Notes: generated by a model not told the origin, from the sequence alone. DNA of 64,000 bases from an uncultured Saccharospirillaceae bacterium (GCA_950054195.1 CATLPG010000007.1:1579-65578); one strand, 5' to 3'. Shown: positions 244 to 20,455, numbered from the stretch's first letter. Made by a program: numbers and translations.

Positions 244-3200
244 ATGGTTTTTCGGTTCTTGCTCATATTAACCCTGTTTTTCTCTCCAAGAGTATACTCT
301 CAAACTACTATTTGGTTAGAAGACTTTACCTCTGAAGTGAATGGAGCTGTTACGGGTAACAATGATAATACAGCTAATCCAGCAGCAGATTGGACAACGT
401 CTTGTCCTACATGTGATAGACCAAATGAATTTAGGGTTAGTGGCAATGAGTTTAGAACAACCAATACAGATGAGTTAGCAACTTGGACATCAGAGGTTAT
501 TGATATAACTGGTTATTCTGATGTTGGGGCAAGTGTTCAAATTGATATGGATGATAATGATATGGAAGCAGTAGACTGTATTACAGTTACGTATAGATTA
601 GATGGAAGTGCGCCTATTGTTTTTCCCACAAATGGTGCTCTATGTGGAGATGGAGCAGACCCTATATTTGCTACTGTTACTGGTTTAACAGGGACAAGTA
701 TTCAAATTATTATACAAGCTATAAATACAGCAACAAACGAAAATATTTATTTTGATAATGTTAGAGTTACTGGAAATTTACCGAGTCCACCATTGGCTTT
801 TATAATTGGAAATAATCAACCAGCAGATAAGGTATACGGGCAGCCAGATTTTGTTACCAATACAGCCGGGTCCTCTCAAACTAGAACATTTGACTCTTAT
901 CATACGGCTGTAGACCCAACTACAGGTAAAGTATTTATTTGTGAAGTAGGTAATAATAGAATTATGCGTTACCCAGATATTGATGCAGTTACTAATGGTG
1001 AACCTGCAGAAGCTGTCTTAGGACAAACAAACTTTACAAATAATGGTACAGGTTTAGCTGCTAATAGATTTAATTCTCCAACAGGAATTTTTATTGGTAT
1101 AGATGGTATTTTGTGGGTGTCCGACTTTCAAAATCATCGGGTATTACGATTTAATAATGCTTCTACAAAAGCAACTGGAGCAAATGCAGATGGTGTTTTA
1201 GGACAGCCAGATTTTACTACTAATAGTACAGCTATAAGTCAAAATAGTATGTATAACCCAATTGGTGTTTATTCAGAAGATGATGGAACACTTTGGGTAG
1301 CAGGGTTAAACTCCAGACGTATTCTTCGCTTTGATAACGCAGCTGCTAAAGCGAATGGAGCTAATGCAGATGGTGTTTTGGGAAAAGGAAATTTCACAAC
1401 TAGCACAATTGATTTATCACAAAATAGAACAGGAGGTATATCAGGAATTTCAGTAAATAATAATGGAAGATTATATGCTAGTGATATCAATAATAACAGA
1501 GTACTTTGGTGGGATAATGCTAAAACGCTACCTAACGGAGCCAATGCAGATGGGGTATTAGGCCAGCCTGATTTTACGACCGGAGGAACTGGTTTGTCTC
1601 AAAGAGAAATGAGTTCGCCAAGGATGGTTTCTGTAACTAGAGATAATCAGTTTTTATCTGTAGCAGATGATGACAACAATAGGATTATGATATACCTAGA
1701 GCCAGGCACAGAAATAGGAGAGGTTAATGCTGATTTTGTTTTTGGACAACCAGATTTCAACTCTAATGCAGTTAATAATGGAGGACTTTCTGCTAGTTCT
1801 ATTAACAATCCTAGGGGTGTTTTCTTTTATCAAACTTCAGCTAGAGAAAACTACTTATTCGTATCCGATAGAAGTAATCACCGAACCAAATTATATGTTT
1901 TGTTTGATGTTTTTTATACAACAGATGCTTATACAGCTATATCTGATACATTTGCTGCAACAGAAGTTGATGGGGATGTACTAACTTTTTCGATTGTAGA
2001 CTCAACTAGCATAGGAACTATCCAAATTGATGATGTTAACTGGGGAACGTATACTTATACACCAAGAGTAAGACCTAACGATTATGCTGATACCGTAACG
2101 TATAGTGTATGTGACAAAGATGGATGTGATACTTCTATTGTTATATTCAATGTATTAAGTCCTGCCAGAATTTGGTTAAAAGCAGATGAGGGAGTAGATG
2201 GTACAACAAATGTTGTTGCTTGGAATAATCAGTCGGTAGTGGGAGATTCAGTATACTCTCCAACAGGAGGTGCTCCTGCATATATAAATAACCGATTTAA
2301 TTTTAATCCAGCAATACGGTTTAATGGATCATCTGATTATATGTTTAAAGAAGAAGGGACGATTAATATTGTAAATCCAGTTTATAGTTCTTTGTTTATA
2401 GTGGCTTCAGCTCGAACACAAAAAAATCAACATTTATTTTACGAAGAAACCAATGCAGATCGCTTTGGAGCGATAAACTTGTGGGGAGATGGTAACGCTT
2501 ATTTTGAAGTTAAGGATGTGTTAGAAAACGGTGTTGCTTGGGGAGGTTCTCTGGATAGTGTGTTCTTATGGTCCTTTGTTCAGGATAGCTTAACTGAATC
2601 AATTGCACGAAACGGACTGGAACTAATATCAAACACATCTAATACCGATTTTGGTAAAGGTGACACAGCATTTATTGGTTATGATCGTTCAAATTTTTAT
2701 GATGGTGATATAGCTGAAGTATATCAATACCAATATATAGAAGGAAGTTCTTTTCAAAATGGAGAGATTAATTCTGTGGAGTCATACATGGCACTAAAGT
2801 ATGGTATAACGCTTGATCAAACTGTAGATAGAGATGGAGATGGAAATACTGGTACAGATTACACGTTGTCTGATACTAATTCTATCGCTTGGAATGAAAC
2901 AGATAATATAGGTTATAATAACGATATCGCAGGTGTAGGGAGGGATGATAGGTTCCACTTAAACCAAAAACAAAGTAAAAGTGTCAACCATGATGCTATT
3001 ATTACCATGGGGTTAGATTCAATAACAACAGATAACTTATCTCATGGAAGTACTTTTATGAAAGACTCAATTGCATTTGTATGGGCTAACAACGATAGTA
3101 GTTTAGCTTCTTGGAGTACACAAGAAACCAGACATAGTTACAATACTATTTATCGCTTAAAGAGAGAGTGGAAAGTAGAGGAAAACTTAGGAGATGTAGG

Positions 3201-3480
3201 AACATTAGCTGTTCAAGTAAATAGTGCTGATTTACCAATAGCTCCTTTTGCAGGAAACAAACTTTTTATAGCTATTGATGAGGACTTAGATGGTGATTTT
3301 ACGACTGGTGATATTCAATTAATTCGTATGACCAATAACGCAGGAACCTGGGAAGCTGATGTTAACTTTTTGGATGGTCAGGTATTTACTTTTATGTTTA
3401 TTCATTTTGACTTCATGCGTCACGGGAAAAACTTTTACAATCAAAAAGAAAATGTTTATCGTTGGATAAATAGAAGGTAA
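244..3480 (+). CDS. Large secreted multidomain protein: N-terminal jelly-roll (MAM-like) module, six NHL-type beta-propeller repeats, cadherin/VCBS-like domain, LamG/concanavalin-like region
   Basis: Signal peptide MVFRFLLILTLFFSPRVYSQ. N-module WLEDF...W...EVIDI...YRLDG...IYFDNVRVTG. Six ~60-aa repeats carry [LFY]GQPDF and NNR[IV][LM]R[FY]. Further motifs are DGDVLTFSIVD...TYTYTP...TVTYSVCD and DIAEVYQY/ESYMALKYGITLD. No T9SS C-terminal domain is recognisable. Confidence 0.8.
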   Translation: MVFRFLLILTLFFSPRVYSQTTIWLEDFTSEVNGAVTGNNDNTANPAADWTTSCPTCDRPNEFRVSGNEFRTTNTDELATWTSEVIDITGYSDVGASVQIDMDDNDMEAVDCITVTYRLDGSAPIVFPTNGALCGDGADPIFATVTGLTGTSIQIIIQAINTATNENIYFDNVRVTGNLPSPPLAFIIGNNQPADKVYGQPDFVTNTAGSSQTRTFDSYHTAVDPTTGKVFICEVGNNRIMRYPDIDAVTNGEPAEAVLGQTNFTNNGTGLAANRFNSPTGIFIGIDGILWVSDFQNHRVLRFNNASTKATGANADGVLGQPDFTTNSTAISQNSMYNPIGVYSEDDGTLWVAGLNSRRILRFDNAAAKANGANADGVLGKGNFTTSTIDLSQNRTGGISGISVNNNGRLYASDINNNRVLWWDNAKTLPNGANADGVLGQPDFTTGGTGLSQREMSSPRMVSVTRDNQFLSVADDDNNRIMIYLEPGTEIGEVNADFVFGQPDFNSNAVNNGGLSASSINNPRGVFFYQTSARENYLFVSDRSNHRTKLYVLFDVFYTTDAYTAISDTFAATEVDGDVLTFSIVDSTSIGTIQIDDVNWGTYTYTPRVRPNDYADTVTYSVCDKDGCDTSIVIFNVLSPARIWLKADEGVDGTTNVVAWNNQSVVGDSVYSPTGGAPAYINNRFNFNPAIRFNGSSDYMFKEEGTINIVNPVYSSLFIVASARTQKNQHLFYEETNADRFGAINLWGDGNAYFEVKDVLENGVAWGGSLDSVFLWSFVQDSLTESIARNGLELISNTSNTDFGKGDTAFIGYDRSNFYDGDIAEVYQYQYIEGSSFQNGEINSVESYMALKYGITLDQTVDRDGDGNTGTDYTLSDTNSIAWNETDNIGYNNDIAGVGRDDRFHLNQKQSKSVNHDAIITMGLDSITTDNLSHGSTFMKDSIAFVWANNDSSLASWSTQETRHSYNTIYRLKREWKVEENLGDVGTLAVQVNSADLPIAPFAGNKLFIAIDEDLDGDFTTGDIQLIRMTNNAGTWEADVNFLDGQVFTFMFIHFDFMRHGKNFYNQKENVYRWINRR
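835..1910 (+). repeat. Six tandem NHL-type repeat units inside the 244..3480 CDS; the three central units keep an exact 180-nt period at DNA level
   Basis: The string aatgcagatgg recurs at 1183, 1363 and 1543, an exact 180-nt spacing. The protein motif ANGANADGVLGQPDFTT recurs every ~60 aa. Confidence 0.8.
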
Positions 3481-3660: not shown

Positions 3661-4803
3661 TTAATTACAAATTGCTGATATATCATCAATACCCCAATAA
3701 TCAAACCCTGATCCACTGGAAGCATAGACCACCCATCTCATTTTAAAATCATCAGTCAAAGGGCCAGGAATAGTTGTTGTGTATTGAGTATACACATTTG
3801 GAGCAAACACTCCAGCGTTGGTGGTAAATAAGGTAACCCAATTTGTGCCATCAAAATACTCAAAATCGAAGCCCTCTCCGTTATCAGGTGTTTCTCCACA
3901 TACAGCATCATCACCAGCAATGTACCAAAAAGAAACATCAATTGAGGTACAACCAGAGGCATCTAAATCATTTGTGGCAAAACCAGTTCCTGGATCACCC
4001 CCTATAAGTATAGATTCTGTACCAGAGCGTGAACATAAGCTTGTAGTAGCAAAAGTACCTGAAGAGACCCACTCCGAAGGAATACCATCTTCAAAGCCTT
4101 GAAATAAAGGAAAATCAGGATTGCAGTTTTTAGGTAACTCAGGTTGAATCATAATTTTATCTGTGGAGGGTACAAAAAATAAATATTGTAAAACAGGAGT
4201 GTTGAATGAGCAAAAGTGTTGATCCTCCCTAACAACACCACCCGAAGATGAGTCCAGTACATACCAGTATCCGACATCTAACCCATGATTAACGGATACA
4301 TACCCCGTATTTTGTATTCTAATAGTATCAGCAGAAGGAGTTGCAACTAACAAAGCTTCAGCTGCCATAGAAATATTCGTGTCAATAGCTAACTCATACC
4401 TAGAAGTGTTTTCATCGTAATAAACAGGAAGTATTTCATAAGCAGGAATTGTAAAACCATGTGTAGGCTCTTCAACATTATAAAGATTATCAATACTGGT
4501 GTCGGGTACGAAAATGTTATGGTTTAGTATACCTCCTTCATAAATTCTCAAGTTACCAAAATCATAGGTCATTGAATCAATAATTTCATTCGTTGAGTCG
4601 GTAAGATCAGGATGGTATGTAGTATGTATGCTATCAATATTAAAGAATATTAAAGAATCATTTCTACCAACTATACTATCAAAACCTGTTGTTTGCTTAA
4701 ATAAACGAATTCTTGTATTGGTTCTATTTTGAGATACCCCGGTAAGTGGTATTATTATAGATAACACAATCAATAGTATAATATGTTGTTTTAAATGTTT
4801 CAT
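3661..4803 (-). CDS. Secreted hypothetical protein, paralog 1 of 3: conserved N-module plus canonical MAM-like C-terminal domain
   Basis: Has a signal peptide. Shares RLFKQTTGFDSIV, HGFTIPAY, IQNTGY..VNHGLDVGYWYVLD, QYLFF and IQPELP with the next two ORFs. The C-terminus FEDGIPSEW...SFWY...FDFEYFDG..W...FDYWGIDDISAI fits the MAM pattern. Confidence 0.7.
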   Translation of the reverse strand: MKHLKQHIILLIVLSIIIPLTGVSQNRTNTRIRLFKQTTGFDSIVGRNDSLIFFNIDSIHTTYHPDLTDSTNEIIDSMTYDFGNLRIYEGGILNHNIFVPDTSIDNLYNVEEPTHGFTIPAYEILPVYYDENTSRYELAIDTNISMAAEALLVATPSADTIRIQNTGYVSVNHGLDVGYWYVLDSSSGGVVREDQHFCSFNTPVLQYLFFVPSTDKIMIQPELPKNCNPDFPLFQGFEDGIPSEWVSSGTFATTSLCSRSGTESILIGGDPGTGFATNDLDASGCTSIDVSFWYIAGDDAVCGETPDNGEGFDFEYFDGTNWVTLFTTNAGVFAPNVYTQYTTTIPGPLTDDFKMRWVVYASSGSGFDYWGIDDISAICN

Positions 4804-4804
4804 C

Positions 4805-5977
4805 CTATAATGTTCTAACTCTCATTTGTTCTAAATAAACATCCTCAGCACCACCGCTATCAAAAAAGACGGCCCTAAGTTGTACATTGCTCACTCCAGC
4901 AACTGAAACTGTTAACGTAGCATCACCATTGCCAAAATCATCAAATAAATCAACAATGTCTATCCATGCTCCTCCATCTAAACGGTATTGTATATTTAAA
5001 TTATCTGCTCCATCCAGATTGCTTTCCTCACGATAATCTACAAAAATTTCTACATCGCCATCGTGGCAAAAAACATCAATCTGTTCTGATAACCAAGTGG
5101 TAGTTCCTCCACTCATATAAAATTCCCAGTTAAAATCATTACGAGTCTCTCCCGTTCCTGTGGTTGTTCGAGACCAAGAGGTTGGTCCATTATCAACAGT
5201 AGAATTGTTTGGTAATCCATCAAAGCCTTCGTTCCAATCCCTACTAAAGTCATCCTGGCACCTGTTTGGACAGTCTAGCGGTTTTTCTGGCTGTAGAAGT
5301 ATTGTTTCAGGAGATGACGTGTAAAAAAGATATTGAATATGATGATCTTCATTTTCACAAGTGTCTACTGCAGGTATTACATTTCCTGGTGTTAAGGTGT
5401 CTAATATGTACCAAACACCTACAGGTAATCCATGATTTAAATTTAAATAACCGGTGTTTTGTATTTCTATAGTATTTAAGTTAGGGGCTCGTGTCATTAG
5501 TACATCTGCCGTTCGGTGCAAGGAATCAGCAAGAGCAAGTTCATATTGACTAGTAGTTGTATCAAAATACAGAGGTAGAACACCGTATGATGGTACCGTA
5601 AATCCATGAAGTAGCTGAGTTACTCTAAAAAAGTTATCTCTACCTGTAATTATTTCTGCTTTAAACACTCTGTCATCAGCATCAATAACATATAGGGTAT
5701 CATTTAAAAAATAAGCACTATCACTTATTTCATTTAATGTATCTAAGTCAGACAATTCAACTGTCAAAACAGTATCTCTTGTGTAGAAATACATTGAATC
5801 AGCTGTAGTCAATAAAAAGCTACTTCTTTTAGTAACAATGCTGTCAAATCCTGTGGTTTGTTGGAAAAGCCTCAGTTTGGTGTTTTGAGAAAAACTATTA
5901 GTCTTAAACCCAATAGTGAAAGCAAAAACTAAGAAGCCTAATGTTATTAAACGATATTTTAAAAAAGTATTAGTCAT
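4805..5977 (-). CDS. Secreted hypothetical protein, paralog 2 of 3: conserved N-module plus YRLDGGAW-type jelly-roll C-terminal domain
   Basis: Starts 1 nt from the downstream paralog. Has a signal peptide. Motifs are RLFQQTTGFDSIV, HGFTVPSYGVLPLYFD, IQNTGYLNLNHGLPVGVWYILD and QYLFY. C-terminus reads W.EGF...W...EQIDV...IQYRLDGGAWIDI...VYLEQMRV. Confidence 0.7.
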   Translation of the reverse strand: MTNTFLKYRLITLGFLVFAFTIGFKTNSFSQNTKLRLFQQTTGFDSIVTKRSSFLLTTADSMYFYTRDTVLTVELSDLDTLNEISDSAYFLNDTLYVIDADDRVFKAEIITGRDNFFRVTQLLHGFTVPSYGVLPLYFDTTTSQYELALADSLHRTADVLMTRAPNLNTIEIQNTGYLNLNHGLPVGVWYILDTLTPGNVIPAVDTCENEDHHIQYLFYTSSPETILLQPEKPLDCPNRCQDDFSRDWNEGFDGLPNNSTVDNGPTSWSRTTTGTGETRNDFNWEFYMSGGTTTWLSEQIDVFCHDGDVEIFVDYREESNLDGADNLNIQYRLDGGAWIDIVDLFDDFGNGDATLTVSVAGVSNVQLRAVFFDSGGAEDVYLEQMRVRTL

Positions 5978-5980
5978 GCT

Positions 5981-7105
5981 TTAATCTTGTAGTCTAACTC
6001 TATTTATGTAGTGATCTTCTCCACCGCCATTGTCAGTTAAAACTCTAATTTCTAGAGTAGATGAAGTTCCGCTGGCAAATGTAACAGTATGTGTTGTGGT
6101 GCCAAAGTCATTATTATTATACCCAAAAGAAATCCAAGCACCTCCGTCTAATCTGTATTGTGATTCAACATCATCATCTCCTTCCATATTACCTTCTTCG
6201 GATATATCAATAATTATTGTAATATTTCCAGGTACACACTCAATATCGATCGGTGATGTTTGCCAGGTAGAATTATCCATCTCAACAGCTTGTCTACCCG
6301 CATCAACACCATTATCATCAACGGTCCAAGCTGTAGAATCTGTATCAACAGTTGTACCATTTGCTTGTGTCGAAAAATCCTCATCCCAATAGTCTAGGTC
6401 AAAACCTCCGCAGGCAGCGAAAGGATTTAATGTTGTAAGTAAATTAGAAGAATCACACTCTATTGGTTGCTCGGGTTGTATTAATATTTGGTTGGCGTCT
6501 GCTGTGAAAAATAAATATTGAATGGGTTCACCTACTACTAAACACGTATCAAAAGCTGGGATAACACCACCTGGGTTAGCTGTATCTAAAATATACCAAA
6601 TACCTACTTGTAAGCCATGAGTTATATCTAAATACCCAGTGTTTTGTACGAGTATTTGATCTTGATCGATGGAATCTACCATTAAAATATCAGCCGCTTT
6701 ATGAATAGAGTCTGCTTGTGCATATTCATAGGTTCCCGTTGAGTGATTAAAGTACAAAGGTCTTATTCCCCAGCTGGGCAAACGAAAGCCATGGCTAGGT
6801 ATGCTTAACTCGTAATCGTTATCCTTCCCAGCAATGATTTCTACTTTTCTTGTGGTTACAGTATTTTCATAAATTGATAGCGTATCATCTTGGAAACTTA
6901 TTGAATCAAATAGTTCATTTAAAGAATCCAAGTCAAGAGGTCCACCTTTAATTAACGTATCCGATGAATACAAATAAAGGGAGTCGTAGGATGTTACTAT
7001 ACTATCAAAATCATTCGTTTGCTCAAACAATCTAATTTTGGTGTTTTGACCAAAACCAATGGCTGAGCAAATTAAAAAAAAAATAATGTAATAGTATTTT
7101 AACAT
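5981..7105 (-). CDS. Secreted hypothetical protein, paralog 3 of 3: conserved N-module plus YRLDGGAW-type jelly-roll C-terminal domain
   Basis: Lies 3 nt from paralog 2. Has a signal peptide. Motifs are RLFEQTNDFDSIV, HGFRLPSWGIRPLYF, VQNTGYLDITHGLQVGIWYILD and QYLFF. C-terminus reads YWDEDF...W...SPIDI...SQYRLDGGAWISF...HYINRVRL. Confidence 0.7.
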   Translation of the reverse strand: MLKYYYIIFFLICSAIGFGQNTKIRLFEQTNDFDSIVTSYDSLYLYSSDTLIKGGPLDLDSLNELFDSISFQDDTLSIYENTVTTRKVEIIAGKDNDYELSIPSHGFRLPSWGIRPLYFNHSTGTYEYAQADSIHKAADILMVDSIDQDQILVQNTGYLDITHGLQVGIWYILDTANPGGVIPAFDTCLVVGEPIQYLFFTADANQILIQPEQPIECDSSNLLTTLNPFAACGGFDLDYWDEDFSTQANGTTVDTDSTAWTVDDNGVDAGRQAVEMDNSTWQTSPIDIECVPGNITIIIDISEEGNMEGDDDVESQYRLDGGAWISFGYNNNDFGTTTHTVTFASGTSSTLEIRVLTDNGGGEDHYINRVRLQD

Positions 7106-7326
7106 TTCGAATCTATAAGGATTGAATATTTTAAGAAATATATCTTTTATTTTAAATAATACATTAAATTATTTTACGAAAAAATATAGTTCTAGGTTAC
7201 ATGTAAAAATAGGAAAAAACATTTTTTAAACCTATTTTGATGGGGTGAAAGAAATAAGCAAAAAACTAAAGAATAGCTTAAAGTCTAATGTTGCAATAAT
7301 TAATTATTTTTAAAGAAAAAGAACGA

Positions 7327-9687
7327 GTGGCAAAAAAACTTATTTTCTTATTATTACTGTTAGTGTTATTGATTATTGGAGCTTATTACACATATTCAAA
7401 GTTAGAGCGTGTTGAAAATGATCAAAAATCTCTTTTAAGTTTTATTCCTAGAGAACAGATAGAGCTTATTTTTTTCTCCCCATATCTAACAGAAACATTC
7501 AATCAATTTAAATCTCAGTCTGTTTTAGCCAAACAACTTGAAAATAATAAGTCTTTCAAGGTTTTAACTCAAAGAATGGCTATTATAGATTCTGTTTTAC
7601 AACAAGAACAGATAGTTACAAAAAATGAATATCTAGCGAATTATAATAATTTCCAATCATTTTTATACGTAGCTAAACATGAAGGAGATGAGATTGTTGA
7701 TACAATCACTCAAACGATTAACGGGCAAGAGGTTTTTGTAAGTCTTGGAGAAAATAAATTATTCATTTCTAACACTGAAGAATTACTTAAGCCCCAAAAA
7801 GAGATGGTTTTAAGCAATGATACGCTTCTAGCTAAAGTTTTTAATACTACTAGCGAATTAGCATTTGGCATAAACTTTTCTCAAGCATATAGCCAAAATA
7901 ACTTTGACTTTTTTAAATCTGATGGTAATAAATGGGGGTGGTATGATATTAACTTTTCTGAACAAGATTTTAGAGTTAATGGTATTGAATTAGTAAACAC
8001 TTCTAAAACAGGTGAAACCGAAATAAATCACTCCTATTCATTTATACCACAAAATATTTCTACATTATCAATAGTAGAAACAAGAGACTTACTTGTGCCT
8101 GCAATTTTTGACTCTTTGTGTAATTGTAACTTTGTGAAAGAAAAAATGGATTGGGTAGGGAGTCATATGATGACTTTTTCAGGACAATTTTTAGATGAAA
8201 ACTATTTAGCGATACATTTAAGTAATCCAGATTTAATAGATGAGCAATTGGGATCAATAAACATTAACAAAGACTCCAATAATATCTATGCTATAACCGA
8301 AAATGATTTAGATTTTAAAGAAATTTTTAATTTGGATTTTTATCCCAATTACTTAATCGTTTTGGATGATTATGCCATATTAGGAATAAATCAAGACGCC
8401 TTAAATAAATTGCTGTATAACTACAATAATGAAAACACCATTGTTAAACAAATTGATATTTATGAGTACTTAGTTAATCGATTTGATGATAAAGATGTCA
8501 AACATAAAAAAGTAGAAAAAGGCTTTTTACCATCATCAGAAATATCAAAAGGGATAAGTACACTTACTAGAAAGGTAGCAAATGAACACATGGAAATTAT
8601 ATCTTTTGATTATACACAAAAAATAAACTTGATATCAACTAGTGAACAAGCAGCATGGAATCAGCAGTTGGATGCTAACATAACATTTGTAGACTTAATT
8701 TTCAACCATCAAGTAAATGATAAACAACTTGTAGTCCAAGATGAATCAGATATGCTTTATTTAATTACACCCGCTGGTGCCATTTCCTGGAAAAAGCAAC
8801 TTCAAGGTCAAGTAAAAGGTAATATTGAGCAAGTAGATATCTACAAAAATGGAAAAAAACAACTCTTATTTAACACAACATCGCACATTTACTTACTAGA
8901 TGTGTTAGGTAGAGATGTTAATAGTTTTCCAGTAACTATTGATTCTGCAACAAATTATATCAATGCATTTGATTATGATAACAATGGAGATTATCGTTTT
9001 GTTTTAGCCACTAAAAGTGGGATAGTTAACTACGATAAAGAAGGTAAACCAATTCTAGGATGGAACAAATTTCAACCCAAAGCAACTATACAGCAACAAA
9101 TACGATACTTTAGTATTTCAGGAAAAGATTATTTATTAGCAAATGATATAGAAAGCAATGTTTACTTACTCTCAAGGAGAGGTGATATTCGAGTACCATT
9201 ATCATCAACTTACAGTTCAACTTATTTACCTGTAGATTTTGGAAATGATTTAAATACTACTCGAACAGTTTATTACAGTTCAAGTGATAAATCAGTTAAG
9301 AAACACTTCTTTAATAACAGTGCCCCAATTAAAGTACTATATTTTACTGATAGTGTAGAACACTTTAGTTACCATAGTGTTACACAAAGTAAAGACAAAC
9401 AATATTTGATTTTTTTCAAAAATAGAGTAGAAGTATTTGATAAAGCAGGTAAAAAAGTAGAGCAGTATAAGCTACCAATTGAAAAACAGCATATTAAGCT
9501 ATATAATAACAATATAGGAGTCATTCATCCCATTGTAAATGAACTACATCTCATCGATACCAAACTCAAGGATAAATCCATATTTTCTAATATGACAAAC
9601 TATATTATAGATGAAAAAAACACTTACGATCGTATCTATGGTGTGTCGGGTGATAATATTCGTATGATTATTAAAAAGAGAGAGTAA
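7327..9687 (+). CDS. Membrane-anchored hypothetical protein with C-terminal beta-propeller-like (BamB/PQQ- or FG-GAP-like) repeats
   Basis: GTG start. N-terminal TM helix LIFLLLLLVLLIIGAYY. The C-terminal third has repeated strand-turn motifs (LYLITPAGAISWKKQL, HIYLLDVLGRDVNSFP, DYDNNGDYRFVLATKSGIVNYDKEGKPILGW). No catalytic motif is recognised. Confidence 0.6.
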   Translation: MAKKLIFLLLLLVLLIIGAYYTYSKLERVENDQKSLLSFIPREQIELIFFSPYLTETFNQFKSQSVLAKQLENNKSFKVLTQRMAIIDSVLQQEQIVTKNEYLANYNNFQSFLYVAKHEGDEIVDTITQTINGQEVFVSLGENKLFISNTEELLKPQKEMVLSNDTLLAKVFNTTSELAFGINFSQAYSQNNFDFFKSDGNKWGWYDINFSEQDFRVNGIELVNTSKTGETEINHSYSFIPQNISTLSIVETRDLLVPAIFDSLCNCNFVKEKMDWVGSHMMTFSGQFLDENYLAIHLSNPDLIDEQLGSININKDSNNIYAITENDLDFKEIFNLDFYPNYLIVLDDYAILGINQDALNKLLYNYNNENTIVKQIDIYEYLVNRFDDKDVKHKKVEKGFLPSSEISKGISTLTRKVANEHMEIISFDYTQKINLISTSEQAAWNQQLDANITFVDLIFNHQVNDKQLVVQDESDMLYLITPAGAISWKKQLQGQVKGNIEQVDIYKNGKKQLLFNTTSHIYLLDVLGRDVNSFPVTIDSATNYINAFDYDNNGDYRFVLATKSGIVNYDKEGKPILGWNKFQPKATIQQQIRYFSISGKDYLLANDIESNVYLLSRRGDIRVPLSSTYSSTYLPVDFGNDLNTTRTVYYSSSDKSVKKHFFNNSAPIKVLYFTDSVEHFSYHSVTQSKDKQYLIFFKNRVEVFDKAGKKVEQYKLPIEKQHIKLYNNNIGVIHPIVNELHLIDTKLKDKSIFSNMTNYIIDEKNTYDRIYGVSGDNIRMIIKKRE

Positions 9688-9708: not shown

Positions 9709-12700
9709 ATGAGCAAAAATTTTAAAATATATAAATCTTCAGCAGGTTCTGGTAAAACGTACACGCTAGTTAAAGAGTATCTAGGAATTGTACTTTCACA
9801 AGAAAAAACCAATCGTTACCGTAATATTTTGGCTATTACCTTTACCAATAAGGCAGCTGCCGAAATGAAAGAACGGATTTTAGAGCACTTAAAGAGCTTA
9901 TCTGCACCTGTTGATTCGCCCCATTTTGATAAAGGATTATTGGAAGACTATTCTCAATCGTTAAATCTTTCCTCTTCGGTTATTCAAGAAAGAGCACAAG
10001 AAACCTTTCAATCGTTATTGCATAATTATTCTGATTTAAAGGTTTCAACTATCGATAAGTTTACGCATAAAATTATTCGAGCTTTTGCAAGAGATTTAGA
10101 TCTTCAACAAGATTTTGATGTTGAAATGGATGTTGACTTTATCTTACAATCTGCCATTCATCAAGTAATAGAGCAAGTAGGAGAGGATCAAGAAATTTCA
10201 GAAACACTCAAAAAGGTTACCAAAGAGCAAATCAACAACGAAAAAACATGGAATATTGAACAAAACCTGTTTGATTTTACTAAAACCTTCATCAATGAAG
10301 ATAATTTTGAATTTTTAGAACAGCTACAGCAAATTGAATTGTCAGAGATAAAAAAAGGTGTAAAGCAAATTCTAAATACTAAAAAAGAGCTTGAGTTAAA
10401 AGTAAAAACAATAGCAAAGGATGTTGTAAATGTAATTGATCAATCAGGTGTAGAGAAAGGAGATTTTCCTTATGGCACTTTTTATCAATTTTTTGTTGAT
10501 TTAAGTAATGGTTCGTTCGAAAAATATCATGAAATACCTGCTCGTGTTTTATCAGCTTTTGAGTCGGATGCTGTTGATTGGTTATCAAAAAAAGCAGCAA
10601 AAATAAAAGCATCCAATATCTTAAGTGTAGAAACTAGTATAAGAGATTGTTGTCATCAATTACTAGCTATCAGAGATAGTTTTTTTACCTATCAATTATT
10701 GGCTATTCATGCGATTCATTTAGAATTAATTCAACACATTTATAACCAACTGGATAAATTAAAAGAAGAAAATACTATTCTTCTCATATCAGATTTTAAC
10801 AAAATCATATCTGAACAAATTAAAGACCAACCAGCACCATTTATTTATGAAAAAATAGGAGAGAGGTATAAAAACATTATGATCGATGAGTTTCAAGATA
10901 CCTCCATTCTTCAATGGCAAAATATCTTACCTCTAATTGATAATTCGTTGGCTCAAGGGGATGAGAGCCTAGTGGTTGGTGATGCAAAACAAGCTATTTA
11001 CCGATTTAGAGGAGGTAAAGTAGAACAATTTGTACAATTACCTCATATCTACGAGCACAAAAATGATCCTTTACTGTTGGAGCGTGAACAGGCACTAATT
11101 TATAATCACGAACCTAAAGTATTAGATACCAATTACCGATCTCAAAAAGAAGTAGTAAGCTTTAATAATTGGTTTTTTGAGGAGTTGAAAAATAATCTAA
11201 CCCAAGATTATCAACAAATTTATGAAGCCAGCTCTCAAAATGTTAGAAAAGGTTTTGATAAAGGATATGTTGAGGTAAGTTTCATCCCTCATAAAGAAGT
11301 CGAAGACTTAGACGAAGCCTATGTTGAACAAACAAAAAATAAAATAGAAGATTCTGTTAAGCATGGGTATCAATACAAAGACATTGCAGTTCTTGTTAGA
11401 GACAACAAAAAGAGTACCCTAGTAGCTGATTACTTATTGTCAAAAAGTATTCCAGTTATCACATCAGAAAGTTTACTCATTCATACGAATAAAGAAGTTC
11501 ACTTTTTAGTCAATTTTTTGAAGTTAATCCATCAGCCATTAGATAATCAAGCAAAATTAAGTTTGGTGAAACTTCTAGTAAGTCAAGATAAACTCAGTGA
11601 GATACTTCTCAACAACTTAATTCCTAAACGAAGGAAAAATAATATCAATTTTGATCACATACTTAAAAGCTTTGATAAACGATTGGATGATATTTCTAAA
11701 TTGGATGTTTCCGTTTACGATTTAGCCGAACACATTATTAGAGAATTTGGGTTGCATAAGTCTGGAGCAAATCCATTTTTGATATGCTTGCTTGATCGTA
11801 TTTATGAAACAACAAAAAAGCGTAACGATCTATCATATTTTATCAAATACTGGGAGGATTATGGAGAAAAAATATCAATTAGTACTCCCGAAGATGCTGA
11901 TGCCGTAACAATTGTAACAATACATAAATCTAAAGGATTGCAGTATCCAGTTGTAATTTTACCGTTTGCAAACTGGGAATTTACCAAGCGAGGATATACG
12001 CCCTTGAGATGGGTTGCTACACCAGAGGAACTTCAACCAACATTACCAATAGCAGTACTGCCTTTAAAAAAAGAAGTAAAAGTAACTGCTTATGGGGTTT
12101 TAGCAGAAGAAGAACAGCAGATTAATAAATTAGATAATTTTAATTTGTTATATGTAGCACTTACTCGCCCTGAGCAAGCACTTTTTATTATTTCTGATAC
12201 CAACGTAAAAAACAAAGAAGGCTGGAAAGAAAATGCAATGAATAGCTATTTATATAAAGTTTGTTCTACGCATTCAAACTTCTCTAATGAAGAGCTTATC
12301 TTGGGAACTATTGAAGTCATCAAAACAAATAAATCGGAAGAAAAAGAGCAAGATGAATGGGAATTGACAAATGTTCAAAGTTCCGATTGGAGAGAAAAAG
12401 TTAAAATAAGCGAAGTTTATAAAAAGCATTGGGTAGAAGGAACTTACTTAGAATCGATCGAGTATGGAAATGCAGTTCATGCTACGCTAGGTTTAATGGA
12501 TATTCCCGAAGATTTAGATAAAGCATTAGAGAAACTATTGAAATCAGGGCAAATTAAACTGTCATGGGAATCCAAAATTAAAGAAGAGGTTCAAAACCTC
12601 ATGAAAAATGAAATTGTTAGTAAATGGTTTAATGGTAGTGGAGTATTAAAAAAGGAAGAAACAATTATAACGAAAGAAGGAGGTTTCTTAATCCCTGATC

Positions 12701-12879
12701 GAGTAATTCTGTATAACCATAAAGCTATTGTAGTTGATTATAAAACAGGGAATAAAGAAAAAAAACACATCGATCAAATTAATCAATACGAAGAAGTATT
12801 AAATGAAATGGGCTATGATGAAGTAGAAAAATACTTATTGTATACCAAAGATGTAGAAATTTTGAAAATAGATGAATAA
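9709..12879 (+). CDS. UvrD/AddA-like superfamily-1 helicase fused to a C-terminal PD-(D/E)xK (RecB-type) nuclease
   Basis: Walker A is SSAGSGKTYTL. Helicase motifs are ITFTNKAAAEMKERI, IDEFQDTS, VGDAKQAIYRFRGG, TNYRS, TIHKSKGLQYPVVILP and LLYVALTRPEQALF. Nuclease motifs are GNAVH...IPDRV...VVDYKTG...QINQY. Confidence 0.9.
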   Translation: MSKNFKIYKSSAGSGKTYTLVKEYLGIVLSQEKTNRYRNILAITFTNKAAAEMKERILEHLKSLSAPVDSPHFDKGLLEDYSQSLNLSSSVIQERAQETFQSLLHNYSDLKVSTIDKFTHKIIRAFARDLDLQQDFDVEMDVDFILQSAIHQVIEQVGEDQEISETLKKVTKEQINNEKTWNIEQNLFDFTKTFINEDNFEFLEQLQQIELSEIKKGVKQILNTKKELELKVKTIAKDVVNVIDQSGVEKGDFPYGTFYQFFVDLSNGSFEKYHEIPARVLSAFESDAVDWLSKKAAKIKASNILSVETSIRDCCHQLLAIRDSFFTYQLLAIHAIHLELIQHIYNQLDKLKEENTILLISDFNKIISEQIKDQPAPFIYEKIGERYKNIMIDEFQDTSILQWQNILPLIDNSLAQGDESLVVGDAKQAIYRFRGGKVEQFVQLPHIYEHKNDPLLLEREQALIYNHEPKVLDTNYRSQKEVVSFNNWFFEELKNNLTQDYQQIYEASSQNVRKGFDKGYVEVSFIPHKEVEDLDEAYVEQTKNKIEDSVKHGYQYKDIAVLVRDNKKSTLVADYLLSKSIPVITSESLLIHTNKEVHFLVNFLKLIHQPLDNQAKLSLVKLLVSQDKLSEILLNNLIPKRRKNNINFDHILKSFDKRLDDISKLDVSVYDLAEHIIREFGLHKSGANPFLICLLDRIYETTKKRNDLSYFIKYWEDYGEKISISTPEDADAVTIVTIHKSKGLQYPVVILPFANWEFTKRGYTPLRWVATPEELQPTLPIAVLPLKKEVKVTAYGVLAEEEQQINKLDNFNLLYVALTRPEQALFIISDTNVKNKEGWKENAMNSYLYKVCSTHSNFSNEELILGTIEVIKTNKSEEKEQDEWELTNVQSSDWREKVKISEVYKKHWVEGTYLESIEYGNAVHATLGLMDIPEDLDKALEKLLKSGQIKLSWESKIKEEVQNLMKNEIVSKWFNGSGVLKKEETIITKEGGFLIPDRVILYNHKAIVVDYKTGNKEKKHIDQINQYEEVLNEMGYDEVEKYLLYTKDVEILKIDE

Positions 12880-13756
12880 TAAATTAATTGTTGACGAACG
12901 TCAAAGAGATATAGGGCAATTTTTAGTAGGTAGGTTATTACCTTTTAAAGATAAACGACAAGTAGGGCCTTTTACCTATATCGATCATATGGGGCCTGTA
13001 GAGCTTGAAGAAGGGAAATTCTTCGACATCGATCAACACCCACACATAGGGTTATCTACACTAACCTATTTATTAAAAGGGGAGATAGAACATATGGATA
13101 GTATTGGCTCCAAACAGGTTGTTAAACCTGGAGATATCGCATTTATGACTTCTGGAAAGGCAGTAACTCATACTGAAAGAACTCCAAAAACATTAAGAGA
13201 AAGTGGAGAAAAAATAATCATGCACGGGTATCAAATATGGGTAGTCCTTCCAAAGCAATTAGAAGACATGGAACCAAACTTTCAATTCTTCTCTTCAAAT
13301 GAAATCCCTTCAAAAGTTACGGATGATTATAGTCTGAAATTATTAGCAGGAGAGGGCTTTGGGTTACGTGCACCTTTGCAAGGGTACTCTCCCTTATTTA
13401 TGGTAGATATCACAGCAAAAAAAACAACTGATTTAGCGTTAGCAGATCAATTAAGTGGTGAATTAGCAATTGTAGTAGTAGAGGGAGAATTAGAGGCAGA
13501 TGGAGAAACTATAAAACAAGGACAAATGCTCATAAGTAAAACAGATGAGCAGTGTAAAGTACATTTAAAAAAGGATACTCAAATACTTATTTTTGGAGGA
13601 AAACCGCTGGAAGATGATGTATTTCTTTTATGGAATTTTGTTTCTTCTGATAAAGATAAATTAGAGCAAGCAAAACAAGATTGGAAAGCAAAAAAGTTTC
13701 CCAAAATAGAAGAGGATGACACCTATGTTCCTTTTCCAGAAATGAAGCTTAAATAA
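12872..13756 (+). CDS. Pirin family protein (bicupin)
   Basis: The stretch HPHIGLSTLTYLLKGEIEHMDSIG...GDIAFMTSGKAVTHTE matches the pirin N-terminal cupin metal site. Its start overlaps the helicase stop by 8 nt. Confidence 0.8.
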   Translation: MNNKLIVDERQRDIGQFLVGRLLPFKDKRQVGPFTYIDHMGPVELEEGKFFDIDQHPHIGLSTLTYLLKGEIEHMDSIGSKQVVKPGDIAFMTSGKAVTHTERTPKTLRESGEKIIMHGYQIWVVLPKQLEDMEPNFQFFSSNEIPSKVTDDYSLKLLAGEGFGLRAPLQGYSPLFMVDITAKKTTDLALADQLSGELAIVVVEGELEADGETIKQGQMLISKTDEQCKVHLKKDTQILIFGGKPLEDDVFLLWNFVSSDKDKLEQAKQDWKAKKFPKIEEDDTYVPFPEMKLK

Positions 13757-13769
13757 CGGTAATAGTTAG

Positions 13770-15209
13770 TTAGGCTTTGTCTTCTGGTTTGCTATCACCA
13801 TCCTCATTTGGTTTTATGTTTTCATCTGAAGAAGATTCCTCGCTATCAATTCTACCTTCGTAAAGATCATCCATTTCATCGAAATATTCTTTTTCTTCTT
13901 CAAAACGTTGTTTTTCAACTTGATCTTCTAAGTAGTTAAGGTTTAGATTTTCAATAAACACATCCCTAACTTTTTGTCCTCTTGCAGCAATCAAAGCAAT
14001 CGTCATAACTACACTCGTAATTAAGATCGTGTACAATAAAATACCAGGATCAAAATTGTCAATAGTTAAGTCTAATTTAGCATCGTAGTTACCTTCCTCA
14101 TCAAGACCAGTCGGAATTGTGTAGAATAACAATACAGTAATTAAACCTCTTGGAGCAATCCATAATTCTGGAACAATACTTTTTCCCCATAGCAATACCC
14201 GAAGCATAATGAAACGAACCAAGTACAATACACCTACAATCACTAAGCTATAAGATGCTACATGCCAATCAAATAGGCTAGATAATGTAATGCTGACACC
14301 AAACATCACAAAGAAGAATGTTCGTAGTACAAAAGCCGATTCTAATGTAATAATATGGAACTCATGAAAAACAGGTTTAATTTGTTCTTCATTCACGGCA
14401 TTTTTAAGTGGTCCTCTAAAAAACAACCCAGCATTATTTAAAATTAATCCGAAGAATAAGATGATAATTAATGATGATATACCTAGCACAGAGCCAACAG
14501 CATATACCAGCATTAAAACAGCAATAATTAAGAATAGTTTTACATGACTAGTAATTCGCTGGAATAACCAAACCAATACGTAGCTCAAAATAATTGCAAC
14601 AGCAATTGTTATTCCCAAATCAATAGAAACATTTAATATTACATCCCCAGTACTCTCGTATGATTCTGAAGAAGTCAAAAATTGAAAAAAGATAATCCCA
14701 AAAATATCAGAAAAAGTACTCTCATAAATCATGAACTCCTTCTTACTCTGTTCTAAACTTCCAACACTAGGAATAATGATTGCACTACTCATAATAGATA
14801 GTGGAACAGCATAAGCCATAGCTTGCATAAAACTGGTGGTTAAAAAATACTGAATGGCTAAAGCAATAATTAATGAGCTAATGATCAAACAAAACAGTGC
14901 AGAAACCAATGACTTTACGATTAGTCCGAGTTTTTCTTTTTTTAGCTTTAGATCCAATGCAGCTTCTAAAACAATGAGGATCAGTCCAACTTTACCAACT
15001 ATAATTAGTAGCTGGGATACCAAGGGACTCTCTCTAATTTCATCACCAACAATGTATTGTATTCCAACACCTAGCATAAGTAGTAATAATACACTAGGAA
15101 TATTGGTCTTTTTAGAAATGATATTAAAAATAAAGCTGATGATAATAATTATGGAAGCCCCCATAATTGCTATGTATTCTGGCTTTAGGTGTAGTGAGCT
15201 TAGTAGCAT
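13770..15209 (-). CDS. Cation:proton antiporter (Na+/H+ exchanger family) with acidic cytoplasmic tail
   Basis: About 11-12 predicted TM helices with a typical CPA layout. The C-terminal region is rich in acidic residues. Confidence 0.7.
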   Translation of the reverse strand: MLLSSLHLKPEYIAIMGASIIIIISFIFNIISKKTNIPSVLLLLMLGVGIQYIVGDEIRESPLVSQLLIIVGKVGLILIVLEAALDLKLKKEKLGLIVKSLVSALFCLIISSLIIALAIQYFLTTSFMQAMAYAVPLSIMSSAIIIPSVGSLEQSKKEFMIYESTFSDIFGIIFFQFLTSSESYESTGDVILNVSIDLGITIAVAIILSYVLVWLFQRITSHVKLFLIIAVLMLVYAVGSVLGISSLIIILFFGLILNNAGLFFRGPLKNAVNEEQIKPVFHEFHIITLESAFVLRTFFFVMFGVSITLSSLFDWHVASYSLVIVGVLYLVRFIMLRVLLWGKSIVPELWIAPRGLITVLLFYTIPTGLDEEGNYDAKLDLTIDNFDPGILLYTILITSVVMTIALIAARGQKVRDVFIENLNLNYLEDQVEKQRFEEEKEYFDEMDDLYEGRIDSEESSSDENIKPNEDGDSKPEDKA

Positions 15210-15238
15210 ATGTAATCAATATTTGTTGAAATTACCAA

Positions 15239-16633
15239 TTAAGAGGCAGATTGCATAAGTACGGCACATAAAATTGCACCATACGTACCTAAAGCATATC
15301 CAAGCACGGCTAATAACACACCAACTGGTGCTAAACTAGGGTGAAACGCACCTGCTACTACAGGTGCAGAGGCTGCTCCTCCTATGTTTGCTTTACTACC
15401 AACAGCTAAAAAGAAGAATGGTGCTTTAATGATCCATGCCATTAAAAATAACAACGCTACATGAATGAGCATCCAAACGCCTCCAATAGCAAATAATCCA
15501 AGATTATCTACAATAGCACTAATATCCATTTTCATACCGATTGTAGCAACTAAAATGTAAATGAAAACACTTCCAATTTTCGATGCTCCAGCACCTTCGT
15601 AATTTCTAGCTTTAGTAAAGCTCAAAATAATACCTACTGTAGTAGAAATAACAATCAACCAGAAAAATGAACTTCCTAATCCAAATGGTTTTAGCTTAGG
15701 GAAATTTTCTCCAATCACAGGACCTAAATAATCTGCTACTAAATGAGCGAACCCAGTAACACCTAAGCCAATCATTAAAATCATGATAATGTCATTAAAT
15801 GAAGCAACACGCGCTGTTCGCTGACTAAATTCATGCATTTTATTCTTTAAGTTTTCTACAGCAGAGCTATCAGCTTTAAAGAACTTATCGATCTTTTTAG
15901 CATTAGCAACACCAATTAATAAAAATGCCATCCAAACCTCTGCAACTAATACATCTACGGTAATCATTACAGAAAAAAGCTCATCGTTTACCTCGTATAG
16001 CTCTTTCATCGCAGTTTGATTAGCTCCCCCACCAATCCAGCTACCCGCTACCGTAGATAGCCCCCTCCAGATTTCACTGCCATTTACATCAGCCAATAAC
16101 TCAGGATTTACTATACTAAAAAACCAAATAGCAAGGGGACCACCAATAACAACTCCAACAGTAGCGGTTAAAAACATGATAAGTGCCTTAGGACCTAAAC
16201 GAAATACTTCTCTTAAACTAATACTGATAGTTAGCAAAACCAAACTAGCAGGAAGTAAATAACGAGAAGCAACAAAGTATAGTTGGGATTTTCCAATAAA
16301 TGGCTCATAAACATCCTTAGCAATGTTATTTTCCTTAACAAAAACCTTAAGTTGTTCTAAAGAGGCTCCAGCATCAATAGAATATCCCAGTGATTGTAAT
16401 TCATTTATGGTGGCCGAAACATCAATCCATTTAGCAGCTATAATACCTGCCGTAGAGAAAAGAGAAGGTAAAAAATAACACAATAGAAGAGCAGGAATAA
16501 TTTTATAAAACCCTTTAAACCTATTTAGTGAAGATGTATGAAAAATTAACCCTAAGAGCCCCAGTAATATGGCAAGAACTACAGCGTCATTTGTTATTAA
16601 TGGAACATTTTGTGTAATTTCTGATAAATTCAT
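15239..16633 (-). CDS. Polytopic membrane protein, DUF819-like
   Basis: Multi-TM protein. The segment GSWIGGGANQTAMKE and the overall architecture match my recollection of DUF819. The family assignment is untested. Confidence 0.55.
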   Translation of the reverse strand: MNLSEITQNVPLITNDAVVLAILLGLLGLIFHTSSLNRFKGFYKIIPALLLCYFLPSLFSTAGIIAAKWIDVSATINELQSLGYSIDAGASLEQLKVFVKENNIAKDVYEPFIGKSQLYFVASRYLLPASLVLLTISISLREVFRLGPKALIMFLTATVGVVIGGPLAIWFFSIVNPELLADVNGSEIWRGLSTVAGSWIGGGANQTAMKELYEVNDELFSVMITVDVLVAEVWMAFLLIGVANAKKIDKFFKADSSAVENLKNKMHEFSQRTARVASFNDIIMILMIGLGVTGFAHLVADYLGPVIGENFPKLKPFGLGSSFFWLIVISTTVGIILSFTKARNYEGAGASKIGSVFIYILVATIGMKMDISAIVDNLGLFAIGGVWMLIHVALLFLMAWIIKAPFFFLAVGSKANIGGAASAPVVAGAFHPSLAPVGVLLAVLGYALGTYGAILCAVLMQSAS

Positions 16634-16677
16634 TTAAATTTAGATCTAATTAAGAATGTTCAAGATAAAAAAAACTT

Positions 16678-17493
16678 ATGAAATTATTAACTCAGGCTAC
16701 CATAGTAGTTGTTATTCTTACATTAAACTTGTCTGCTAAAGCTCAGCTAGTAGACTCAACTGATAAAAAGTCTTCTTTTTTTTCAGATGCTTCGTATTCA
16801 TTTGGTTTTGATATTGGAGGACATAGTTATGGAGGTTTTAATAAAGCCCTTAATTTTAGAATTCATAAAAAATTTGGACGATTAAAATTTGCTCTAGAAA
16901 AAAATGGGGCATCATTGGGATTAATTGCAGGCAAATCTATAGTTCCTTACCCTTTTTTAATTACTCCACCTGATTCAAATAATGTTTTTGTAGGAAGAAA
17001 GGAGTTTAATTATCCAGTTAAATTATCATCCATCACTATAGGTTATGAAAAGGTTTTTGAAAAAAAGAAAATTAATTGGTTAGTCGGCAGTGATTTATCG
17101 ATAACTAGAGCCATTATTAAGAACACAGAAGAAATTGGGAATTATCAAATTACTGTTAGTGATTCTGGATTTTCTCAAAATCAACCATGGGGAAATTATT
17201 TATATGAAACAAATGAGCTCAACCAACTTGACACCCTTAACTACAGAAATTATTACCGAAAGTTAAATTTTATAGGAATAAGTATAAATGGAGGAATAGG
17301 AGTAAAGTTAACAAGCAAACTATACTTAACAATTACAGGAGAATTTCATTGGTTCTTTAAAATTTCAGACAAAAAAGAGGATGATTACTCAACTAGCTTA
17401 CAAAAAGAAAACTTTTCAAATTTTGACTATCAAGCTCAATTGGATTTGCCTCTTAAATTATCTTCAAACTTTGGGTTGTATTATAAGTTTTAG
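16678..17493 (+). CDS. Hypothetical outer-membrane beta-barrel protein
   Basis: Signal peptide ending AKAQ. Alternating-hydrophobic strands and a terminal aromatic residue (..GLYYKF) are typical of OM beta-barrels. Confidence 0.5.
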   Translation: MKLLTQATIVVVILTLNLSAKAQLVDSTDKKSSFFSDASYSFGFDIGGHSYGGFNKALNFRIHKKFGRLKFALEKNGASLGLIAGKSIVPYPFLITPPDSNNVFVGRKEFNYPVKLSSITIGYEKVFEKKKINWLVGSDLSITRAIIKNTEEIGNYQITVSDSGFSQNQPWGNYLYETNELNQLDTLNYRNYYRKLNFIGISINGGIGVKLTSKLYLTITGEFHWFFKISDKKEDDYSTSLQKENFSNFDYQAQLDLPLKLSSNFGLYYKF

Positions 17494-18254: not shown

Positions 18255-18385
18255 AACTAATTAAAAGTATTGACTAGTTGAATTTTTTGTATTTCAACCT
18301 AAAATATGTGCACTTCACCTAATTTATTTTGGATAATTCTCAACTTCGAATGATAGCTTTTTAAAACCTACAAAGTGATAATTGT

Positions 18386-18393
18386 TATATTTG
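18386..18393 (+). promoter_or_regulatory. Candidate Bacteroidota -7 promoter box (TAnnTTTG)
   Basis: TATATTTG lies 51 nt upstream of the 18444 ATG. No well-spaced -33 TTG is present. Chance occurrence in AT-rich DNA is not negligible. Confidence 0.3.
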
Positions 18394-18443
18394 GGATAAA
18401 TGTAATAGTTACGTTTATATTGATGTTATCTACAATTTGACAA

Positions 18444-20446: not shown

Positions 20447-20455
20447 CCTAATGAT

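Follow-up and report, generated by a model that had tools for sequence, protein, structure and literature searches.

Three adjacent genes in a 64,000-nucleotide stretch of an uncultured bacterial genome (GCA_950054195.1, CATLPG010000007.1:1579-65578; the whole stretch is called the window here) encode a small family of paralogous proteins with a conserved N-terminal region and differing C-terminal modules. The three open reading frames (ORFs), named ORF-A, ORF-B and ORF-C, lie between positions 3,661 and 7,105, and each product combines a predicted signal peptide, two conserved units (N1 and N2) and a C-terminal module. N2 is homologous to a distal domain of the tail fibres and tail proteins of uncultured Caudovirales; it is an undescribed family, not a known tip domain. 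The explanation that we favour, with moderate confidence, is that a phage fibre domain was adapted here to make exported, non-enzymatic, fibre-like proteins that bind a ligand. As a family these proteins are genuine and rare, and no annotation covers them.

The shared N-terminal core

The three proteins share about 200 amino acids (aa) at 40-54% identity. Their N-terminal modules are 40-49% identical in alignment and their C-terminal modules 22-33%, and hidden Markov model (HMM) E-values for the paralogy lie near 1e-100, so the relationship is far beyond chance. The invariant strings listed in the first-pass annotation of this DNA (RLF.QT..FDSIV, HGF..P....P.Y, QNTGY....HGL.VG.WY.LD and QYLF) all stand in the alignment. 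The last string on that list needs a correction: QPE.P..C is conserved, but the residue before it is I or L ([IL]QPE.P..C) and not an invariant I.

The same annotation treated the conserved region as a single N-module, which the coverage of profile searches does not support. Searched exhaustively, a profile of the 194 shared positions picks up 142 representative proteins at E<=1e-3. About 8 of them span the whole profile, most match just positions ~79-193, and a few match positions ~10-75 alone, sometimes repeatedly (25 stretches in one 4224-aa protein). Because most matches cover one part or the other alone, the N-module is resolved into two units. Profile positions 1-78 correspond to N1, a separate unit that is repeated in giant Bacteroidota-type proteins. 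It is ~75 aa long and consists of a leader, NTKIRLFxQTxxFDSIV, and a hairpin-repeat region; AlphaFold2 (AF2) models N1 of ORF-B as beta hairpins at modest confidence (predicted local distance difference test, pLDDT, about 65).

N2 (~115 aa) is a compact beta domain that carries HGF..P, QNTGY and HGL.VG.WY. Its near-invariant residues, taken from 54 diverse aligned members, are two His, several Gly and one Ala. The two His (in HGF and in HGL.VG) are common to the phage and bacterial domains and might make up a site for a metal or on an axis.

Pfam, NCBIfam and PDB sequence searches gave no enzyme family for any of the three proteins. A match of the N-module to an enzyme or a housekeeping family, which would have spoken against the first-pass annotation, was not found either. 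An enzyme reading was rejected, there being no catalytic family match.

N2 and phage tail fibres

The first-pass annotation had likened the HGF and HGL motifs to an end domain of phage tail fibres. That likeness is supported, because N2 is common to phage tail proteins and the same layout, N2 and then a tip, is found in them; HMM searches, predicted viral folds in BFVD, Vibrio phage D479 and the gene context of the N2 protein P0017 all agree with it. By a crude hydropathy test, a signal peptide is absent in 106 of 126 N2 proteins. N2 is the last domain in 30 phage-type proteins and is followed by 100-300 aa in 54. Many whole N2-bearing proteins match PHROG tail-fibre, tail and minor-tail families, with the matches in the N-terminal ~100 aa and N2 far downstream. 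P0017 is encoded in a 49-kb contig whose genes are tightly packed on one strand, together with Phage_tail_APC and a faint SU10_adaptor match. In D479, a 1420-aa protein ends in N2; its gene stands two genes upstream of one annotated as a tail-fibre gene.

Structural models agree. N2 of ORF-B modelled alone reaches pLDDT 92 and a predicted TM-score (pTM) of 0.85, and Foldseek against BFVD gives 38 matches at E<1e-3 with a query-normalized TM-score (TMq) up to 0.80. These are mostly long uncultured Caudovirales proteins with collagen repeats, intramolecular-chaperone domains, Mtd_N or a tail collar. A distal fibre domain homologous to those of phages is what N2 proves to be.

Tail fibres or tail proteins of uncultured Caudovirales (BFVD A0A8S5PVA3, A0A6J5T831 and A0A0F7L3R5, the last named ‘Phage tail fiber-like protein’; D479 CAL9956717.1; P0017) share with the window proteins the N2 sequence (HMM E as low as 1e-30 among members that lack a signal peptide), the predicted fold (TMq 0.6-0.8) and the layout, in which N2 comes last or next-to-last and a variable tip of 100-300 aa follows. 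The window proteins differ in having a Sec signal peptide instead of a virion-attachment N-terminus, in their size (~380 aa), in their position among housekeeping genes, and in a Cys pair that most phage N2 members lack. The phage homologues are known from sequence or predicted fold, none of them being experimentally characterized.

The best PDB Foldseek match of full-length ORF-B is the C-terminal part of lambda gpJ (8xcj, 8xck; A8 gpJ 9wcb), at E 3.7e-6 and probability 0.98-1.0. The common feature would be an all-beta receptor-binding fibre end, but superposition is poor (TM 0.16-0.31, root-mean-square deviation (rmsd) 16-25 Å), the sequences show no detected similarity, and the top 50 matches listed for N2 alone do not include gpJ.

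Exported Bacteroidota proteins labelled ‘tail fiber domain-containing protein’ or ending in BclA_C/C1q-like domains offer another comparison; we take them to be chromosomal proteins with a signal peptide, repeats and a phage-fibre-like end. They end in a Peptidase_S74 chaperone or in BclA_C, not in N2 plus a jelly roll. A BclA_C protein is present in the same locus of the related assembly L002.

The contig that encodes P0017 (L008; ERZ27256796 k141_874934, 49 kb) is apparently a complete or near-complete uncultured phage genome with P0017 in the middle of the tail module. Pfam matches are missing for almost all of its structural genes.

The three genes themselves stand in a chromosomal, non-prophage context. 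In two respects they differ from virion tail-fibre components: the flanks are housekeeping genes and not a phage or prophage structural module, with the same synteny in a ~87%-identical relative (L007), and the proteins start with signal peptides and have no PHROG match (none at E<0.2), whereas phage N2 proteins match PHROG tail families N-terminally. It is extremely improbable that they are remnants of a prophage or tailocin, fibre genes without a current cellular role. Such an origin would account for the homology of N2 to phage fibre domains and for the BclA_C-type gene nearby in L002, but signal peptides with Gln at +1 are not virion-attachment N-termini, the neighbourhood has no phage genes, and the unit is constrained (ratio of nonsynonymous to synonymous substitution rates, dN/dS, 0.02-0.07), has identical copies in 18 contigs and keeps its synteny in the relative of 87% identity.

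An anti-phage function might also make use of N2, which is common to the fibres of uncultured phages: exported receptor-binding copies would mask the receptors of the producing cell or occupy them, or else neutralize virions, as in superinfection exclusion. Three different tips could cover several receptors, and the locus to the left of the window varies between strains. This proposal is nevertheless very unlikely. PADLOC gave no match at E<=0.1 for six locus proteins, the surroundings contain neither mobile-element nor defence-island genes, and searches of GenBank phages and IMG/VR turned up no close phage counterpart of the tips. Strong purifying selection without strain diversification is the reverse of the pattern expected of an arms-race gene.

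C-terminal modules

ORF-A and ORF-B end in the same kind of module (AB-type). The W.E.F...W...ID...QYRLDGGAW pattern that the first reading saw in both is confirmed by alignment, and the two copies have diverged to 33% identity. The full-length AF2 model of ORF-B has a mean pLDDT of 76, with values >90 in N2 and 80-90 in the C-module. As modelled, the C-module has the fold of a carbohydrate-binding module (CBM) or MAM domain. Foldseek matches it at probability 1.0 to CBM16, CBM22, a chondroitinase CBM, Fbs1 and LAST-MAM (rmsd 3-7 Å, 112-142 columns), and the match list also has the surface glycan-binding protein (SGBP) SGBP-B of B. thetaiotaomicron and CBMs attached to GH43 enzymes. A CBM-like jelly roll is thus predicted for ORF-B only: CBM16 2zey is matched with a target-normalized TM-score (TMt) of 0.54 and probability 1.0, CBM22 4xup and 8jiy also match, and LAST-MAM 8a28 superposes with an rmsd of 3.2 Å over 112 columns. 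Fbs1 1umi is similar in fold as well. The difference from the CBM and MAM modules, and from family NF038128, is that the window modules reach no curated sequence-family threshold and show no assignable ligand-binding residues; PDB sequence searches with whole-protein, AB-type and ORF-C-type profiles gave nothing significant.

ORF-C carries another module, with its own conserved Cys pattern. It had been described as a classical MAM-type domain, and the string behind that description, FEDG...FDYWGIDDI, is indeed present; the label itself does not hold, as there is no match to Pfam MAM (PF00629) even at E<=10. The sole Pfam match is Reelin_subrepeat-B, at E 0.13. The family choice_anch_J (NF038128) is matched over profile positions 90-162, its C-terminal third, by ORF-C (E 0.015) and by P0011 (E 0.002), a relative of 38% identity in which the module sits on a different N-terminal head; with 15.5 and 18.3 bits, respectively, both stay below the cut-off of 30 bits. 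Between the ORF-C-type and the AB-type, BLASTP gives E 5 and hhalign P 0.006-0.012 over 50-53 columns in register. The two types are not demonstrably homologous by these methods and likely represent the same superfold but different families.

The AB-type module is also homologous to the N-terminal 160 aa of a 1078-aa NHL-repeat protein encoded convergently beside the three genes (BLASTP E 3e-8; HMM E about 1e-58), and it recurs at the N-terminus of two L007 NHL proteins (1475 and 1078 aa). This allows for a different role, in which the three proteins are subunits of a larger envelope assembly with the NHL protein and the AB-type module serves protein-protein association or targeting to a common ligand instead of acting as an independent adhesin. 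The synteny of the locus in relatives fits such an assembly, and so does the recurrence of the leader on unrelated small exported proteins, including a 213-aa protein between the L007 NHL genes. We consider it unlikely: N2 relatives occur alone in unrelated contexts, beside IspD, RsgA or HipAB, and since they have no NHL neighbour the core does not need the NHL protein.

The CBM-like fold of the ORF-B C-module, with SGBP-B and GH43-attached CBMs among its matches, is likewise the main argument for periplasmic or secreted accessory proteins that capture glycans for polysaccharide use in the manner of SGBPs, the phage-derived part being a scaffold only. The host would be suitable, as it is placed in the Flavobacteriales, an order known for polysaccharide degradation. 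Against this, no SusC/SusD pair or glycoside hydrolase adjoins the genes, the lipobox that SGBPs have is missing, and the TonB-dependent receptor of the window is 36 kb away; such a role seems quite unlikely.

Export and the leader

Each N-terminus, read by eye, has a basic residue, a hydrophobic stretch, a small-x-small site and then Gln. This is the usual pattern for signal-peptidase-I substrates of Bacteroidota. The Sec signal peptides proposed at first pass are thus borne out by inspection, and residues 2-23 of ORF-B are helical in the AF2 model. We infer export past the inner membrane. Cys residues around QPE.P..C are both present in 10 exported members and both missing in one; the pair would fit an oxidizing compartment.

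The leader directly follows the predicted cleavage site in every leader-bearing protein, whatever comes downstream. It is also found in P0005, P0006, P0009, P0024, P0052, P0107 and L007 16791-17432, a set that includes proteins without N2, and it may be a docking or sorting element.

Lipoproteins and cargo of the type IX secretion system (T9SS) were rejected as descriptions of the three proteins, the required signals being absent.

Proposed mode of action and the evidence against it

For exported, fibre-like ligand-binding proteins, the course of events might be as follows. A signal-peptidase-I-type signal peptide would be removed, leaving Gln at +1, and the leader would attach the protein to a partner in the envelope. 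N1-N2 would form a stalk or knob, and possibly an oligomerization unit, by analogy with phage fibres. The terminal jelly roll (~150 aa) would bind a ligand, most likely a glycan, and three paralogs with two module families (AB-type twice, ORF-C-type once) would provide three binding specificities. Oligomerization, the binding of glycans and docking through the leader are proposals here.

N2 has no sequence-family match in Pfam, NCBIfam, PHROG or PDB, no Pfam domain covers N2 in any of 115 N2-bearing proteins (0/115), and the N2 profile matches no PDB chain. The complete ORF-A, ORF-B and ORF-C sequences give nothing significant in Pfam, NCBIfam or PHROG. In tblastn searches of 50,697 GenBank phages, N2 of ORF-B and one phage-type N2 found none and a second phage-type N2 found D479 only, and a scan of IMG/VR viral contigs with the N-module found no relative.

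Several results weigh directly against the proposed explanation. D479 is the sole GenBank phage with a detectable N2. N2 segments alone match no PHROG family, and the link to phages therefore comes from co-occurrence within proteins, gene context and predicted folds. The likeness of N2 to solved structures is weak: the best match is Adjutor 8saj_1 (TM 0.62, E 0.014), followed by Borrelia phage BB1 8pkh and the phi29 gp8.5 N base 6qyy (about 0.4). These decoration proteins and head-fibre base are, like N2, small beta domains of phage structural proteins, but they are not fibre tips; E ranges from 0.014 to 1, identity is about 10% (Adjutor 11%), and their capsid-cement role differs. As for export, the first reading had stated that none of the proteins has a lipobox or a T9SS C-terminal domain, and this is correct. 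No T9SS C-terminal sorting domain (Por_Secre_tail, CHU_C) was found in the three proteins with Pfam and NCBIfam, although the same Pfam library detects CHU_C in a 1250-aa protein of the window (positive control), and 0 of 115 N2-bearing proteins scanned had a T9SS domain match. No ORF has a lipobox with Cys at +1: the signal regions of ORF-B and ORF-C lack Cys, and the only one in that of ORF-A (FLIC|S) does not make a lipobox, because Ile stands at -1 of the Cys and the Cys is missing in variant P0004. With neither signal, the proteins could stay in the periplasm.

A bolder version of the fibre-like explanation is that a Flavobacteriales lineage rebuilt the phage ‘knob plus tip’ as a Sec-exported system, in which the leader, as a new signal for docking or sorting, would mount interchangeable lectin tips on the envelope without T9SS or lipidation, or that the proteins are anti-phage decoys that mask receptors. 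We regard this as speculative and rather improbable.

Cassette exchange, conservation and distribution

That the proteins are modular, as first described, is confirmed by the domain analysis of N1, N2 and the C-modules. Exchange of C-terminal cassettes, the other part of that description, applies across the family and not between strains. The N1-N2 core occurs with at least four C-terminal beta-sandwich modules (AB-type, ORF-C-type, Laminin_G_3 in P0006, and a module of P0007/P0008); since relatives carry the AB-type, the ORF-C-type, LamG or the fourth module, cassettes have been shuffled across the family. P0006 is named by NCBI as a LamG-like protein of a Flavobacteriales metagenome-assembled genome (MAG). 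The core also varies at its other end, with N2 behind an alternative ‘QYYT..EGD.Y.DT..YIG’ head, and the C-modules are not confined to it: three NHL-repeat proteins carry the AB-type, and P0011 carries the ORF-C-type.

Close strains give the opposite picture. An identical three-gene unit is present in 18 metagenome contigs, and neither gene content nor gene order differs in L007. Identity between orthologues is 83-95% for the C-modules and 88-91% for the N-modules. dN/dS is 0.02-0.07 in every module, an approximate ratio, as dS is saturated, and the present genes are under purifying selection. The expectation that cassette identity would vary between strains was not borne out, synteny comparison showing fixed genes, order and cassettes. 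Active cassette switching between strains was rejected on the grounds of fixed orthologues and purifying selection. The shuffling of modules is ancient, and the present three genes are conserved.

Other family relatives are single genes in unrelated bacterial contexts. Scanning with the N-module found no relative among GTDB representative genomes and 5 loci in JGI metagenomes, mostly from the same organism. A word-index protein search returned the query and one relative and missed the paralogs; its recall is poor and it is not used as evidence of rarity, which also applies to the same search with N2 and ORF-C-type profiles, where nothing was found. Literature searches brought up nothing relevant to the family.

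A second cluster of family genes lies in another Flavobacteriales MAG (L098; GCA_039770415.1, JBDMYI010000272.1, 412-3555). It comprises a 231-aa protein with a ‘QYFT..EGDMY.DT..YIG’ head, P0006 (N1-N2-LamG) and a convergent 356-aa N1-N2-AB-type protein that lacks both QPE.P..C Cys. The LamG and AB-type members are placed tail to tail.

Gene layout and genomic setting

The ORF list and the junction sequences confirm the first reading of three same-strand ORFs spaced by 1 and 3 nt (ORF-A/ORF-B, 3 nt; ORF-B/ORF-C, 1 nt). They probably form one operon and would be co-transcribed. A promoter is presumed upstream of ORF-A, because the genes are tightly packed and internal terminator-like sites are not above chance. 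The Bacteroidota -7 motif TAnnTTTG was not found in this presumed promoter region, and a scan for sigma-70 promoters and terminators stayed at chance level. Coordinates are collected in the table.

Table. Features of the three-gene locus and its convergent neighbour (positions of the window)
Feature	Position	Strand	Description	Basis
ORF-A	7105..5981	-	374 aa: signal peptide, N1, N2, AB-type C-module	
ORF-B	5977..4805	-	390 aa: signal peptide, N1, N2, AB-type C-module	Protein modelled by AF2
ORF-C	4803..3661	-	380 aa: signal peptide, N1, N2, ORF-C-type C-module	
ORF-A signal peptide	7049..7105	-	aa 1-19, predicted cleavage GFG|Q	Sequence inspection
ORF-B signal peptide	5888..5977	-	aa 1-30, predicted cleavage SFS|Q	Sequence inspection; AF2 helix
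ORF-C signal peptide	4732..4803	-	aa 1-24, predicted cleavage GVS|Q	Sequence inspection
Leader TKIRLFxQTTxFDSIV	7000-7048, 5839-5887, 4674-4731	-	Directly after predicted cleavage site	
ORF-A N1	6824..7048	-	aa 20-94	Profile positions 1-78
ORF-B N1	5651..5887	-	aa 31-109	Profile search, AF2 hairpins
ORF-C N1	4498..4731	-	aa 25-102	Profile search
ORF-A N2	6455..6823	-	aa 95-217, ends QPE.P..C; phage-fibre-type beta domain	Profile/HMM
ORF-B N2	5273..5650	-	aa 110-235	AF2 (pLDDT 92, pTM 0.85); BFVD matches to TMq 0.80
ORF-C N2	4123..4497	-	aa 103-227	Profile/HMM
ORF-A AB-type C-module	5984..6454	-	aa 218-374	Alignment, HMM
ORF-B AB-type C-module	4808..5272	-	aa 236-390, predicted CBM/MAM-like jelly roll	Foldseek
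ORF-C-type C-module	3664..4122	-	aa 228-380, distinct sequence family, four conserved Cys	
Convergent neighbour	244..3480	+	1078 aa: signal peptide, AB-type module, NHL repeats, Big_9, DUF8202 region	DUF8202 from precomputed Pfam hits
AB-type module of NHL-repeat protein	301..789	+	aa 20-182	BLASTP E 3e-8, HMM E 2.6e-58
AT-rich divergent intergenic region	7106..7326		221 bp, presumed promoter region of three-gene unit	Inference

The window is ordinary Bacteroidota chromosome with a GC content of 30-37%. Its S46 peptidase is 54-58% identical to the best matches among GTDB species representatives, all of them uncultured Flavobacteriales MAGs, and from sequence the host is identified as an uncultured Flavobacteriales bacterium. 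A UvrD-type helicase, pirin, a Na/H exchanger and the NHL protein form the flanks; CarB, DnaB, the S46 peptidase, a TonB-dependent receptor and a CHU_C cargo protein lie elsewhere in the window. No phage, mobile-element or defence-island genes were found in the window near ORF-A, ORF-B and ORF-C, and an Rfam search of the whole window gave no match.

Divergent from ORF-A, a 786-aa protein with an N-terminal hydrophobic helix is encoded at 7327-9687 (+). It is syntenic in all related contigs, and family searches give just a faint beta-propeller match. At 49757-53509 (+), the 1250-aa protein contains DUF7948, PKD, Ig_7 and the CHU_C type IX secretion domain; T9SS is thus in use in this genome, though the three paralogs do not carry its signal.

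To the left of window position 1 the assemblies differ. L001 has a 777-aa repeat protein there (15742-19079), L002 a 260-aa BclA_C (C1q-like) protein (15742-17528), and L007 an extra NHL protein together with the 213-aa protein (12353-21176). Two large contigs end just left of the window start, which suggests a variable or repetitive surface-protein island.

Significance

Bacterial exported proteins built from phage-fibre parts and lectin modules are a known theme. What is new is the N2 family, the compact architecture of signal peptide, N1, N2 and jelly roll, and a leader locked in position. As the theme is already familiar and the function is a proposal, the finding is useful rather than surprising. 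It includes an export puzzle: these Bacteroidota proteins look surface-directed, yet none of the known surface-sorting signals is present in them. N2 is present in well over a hundred protein clusters at 50% identity, mostly fibres of uncultured phages, and receptor-binding proteins in viromes would be better annotated once the family is defined. In the bacterial members, cells use N2 at the centre of small exported proteins whose lectin-like ends are interchangeable, and this offers a compact natural scaffold on which fibre-tip swapping can be studied.

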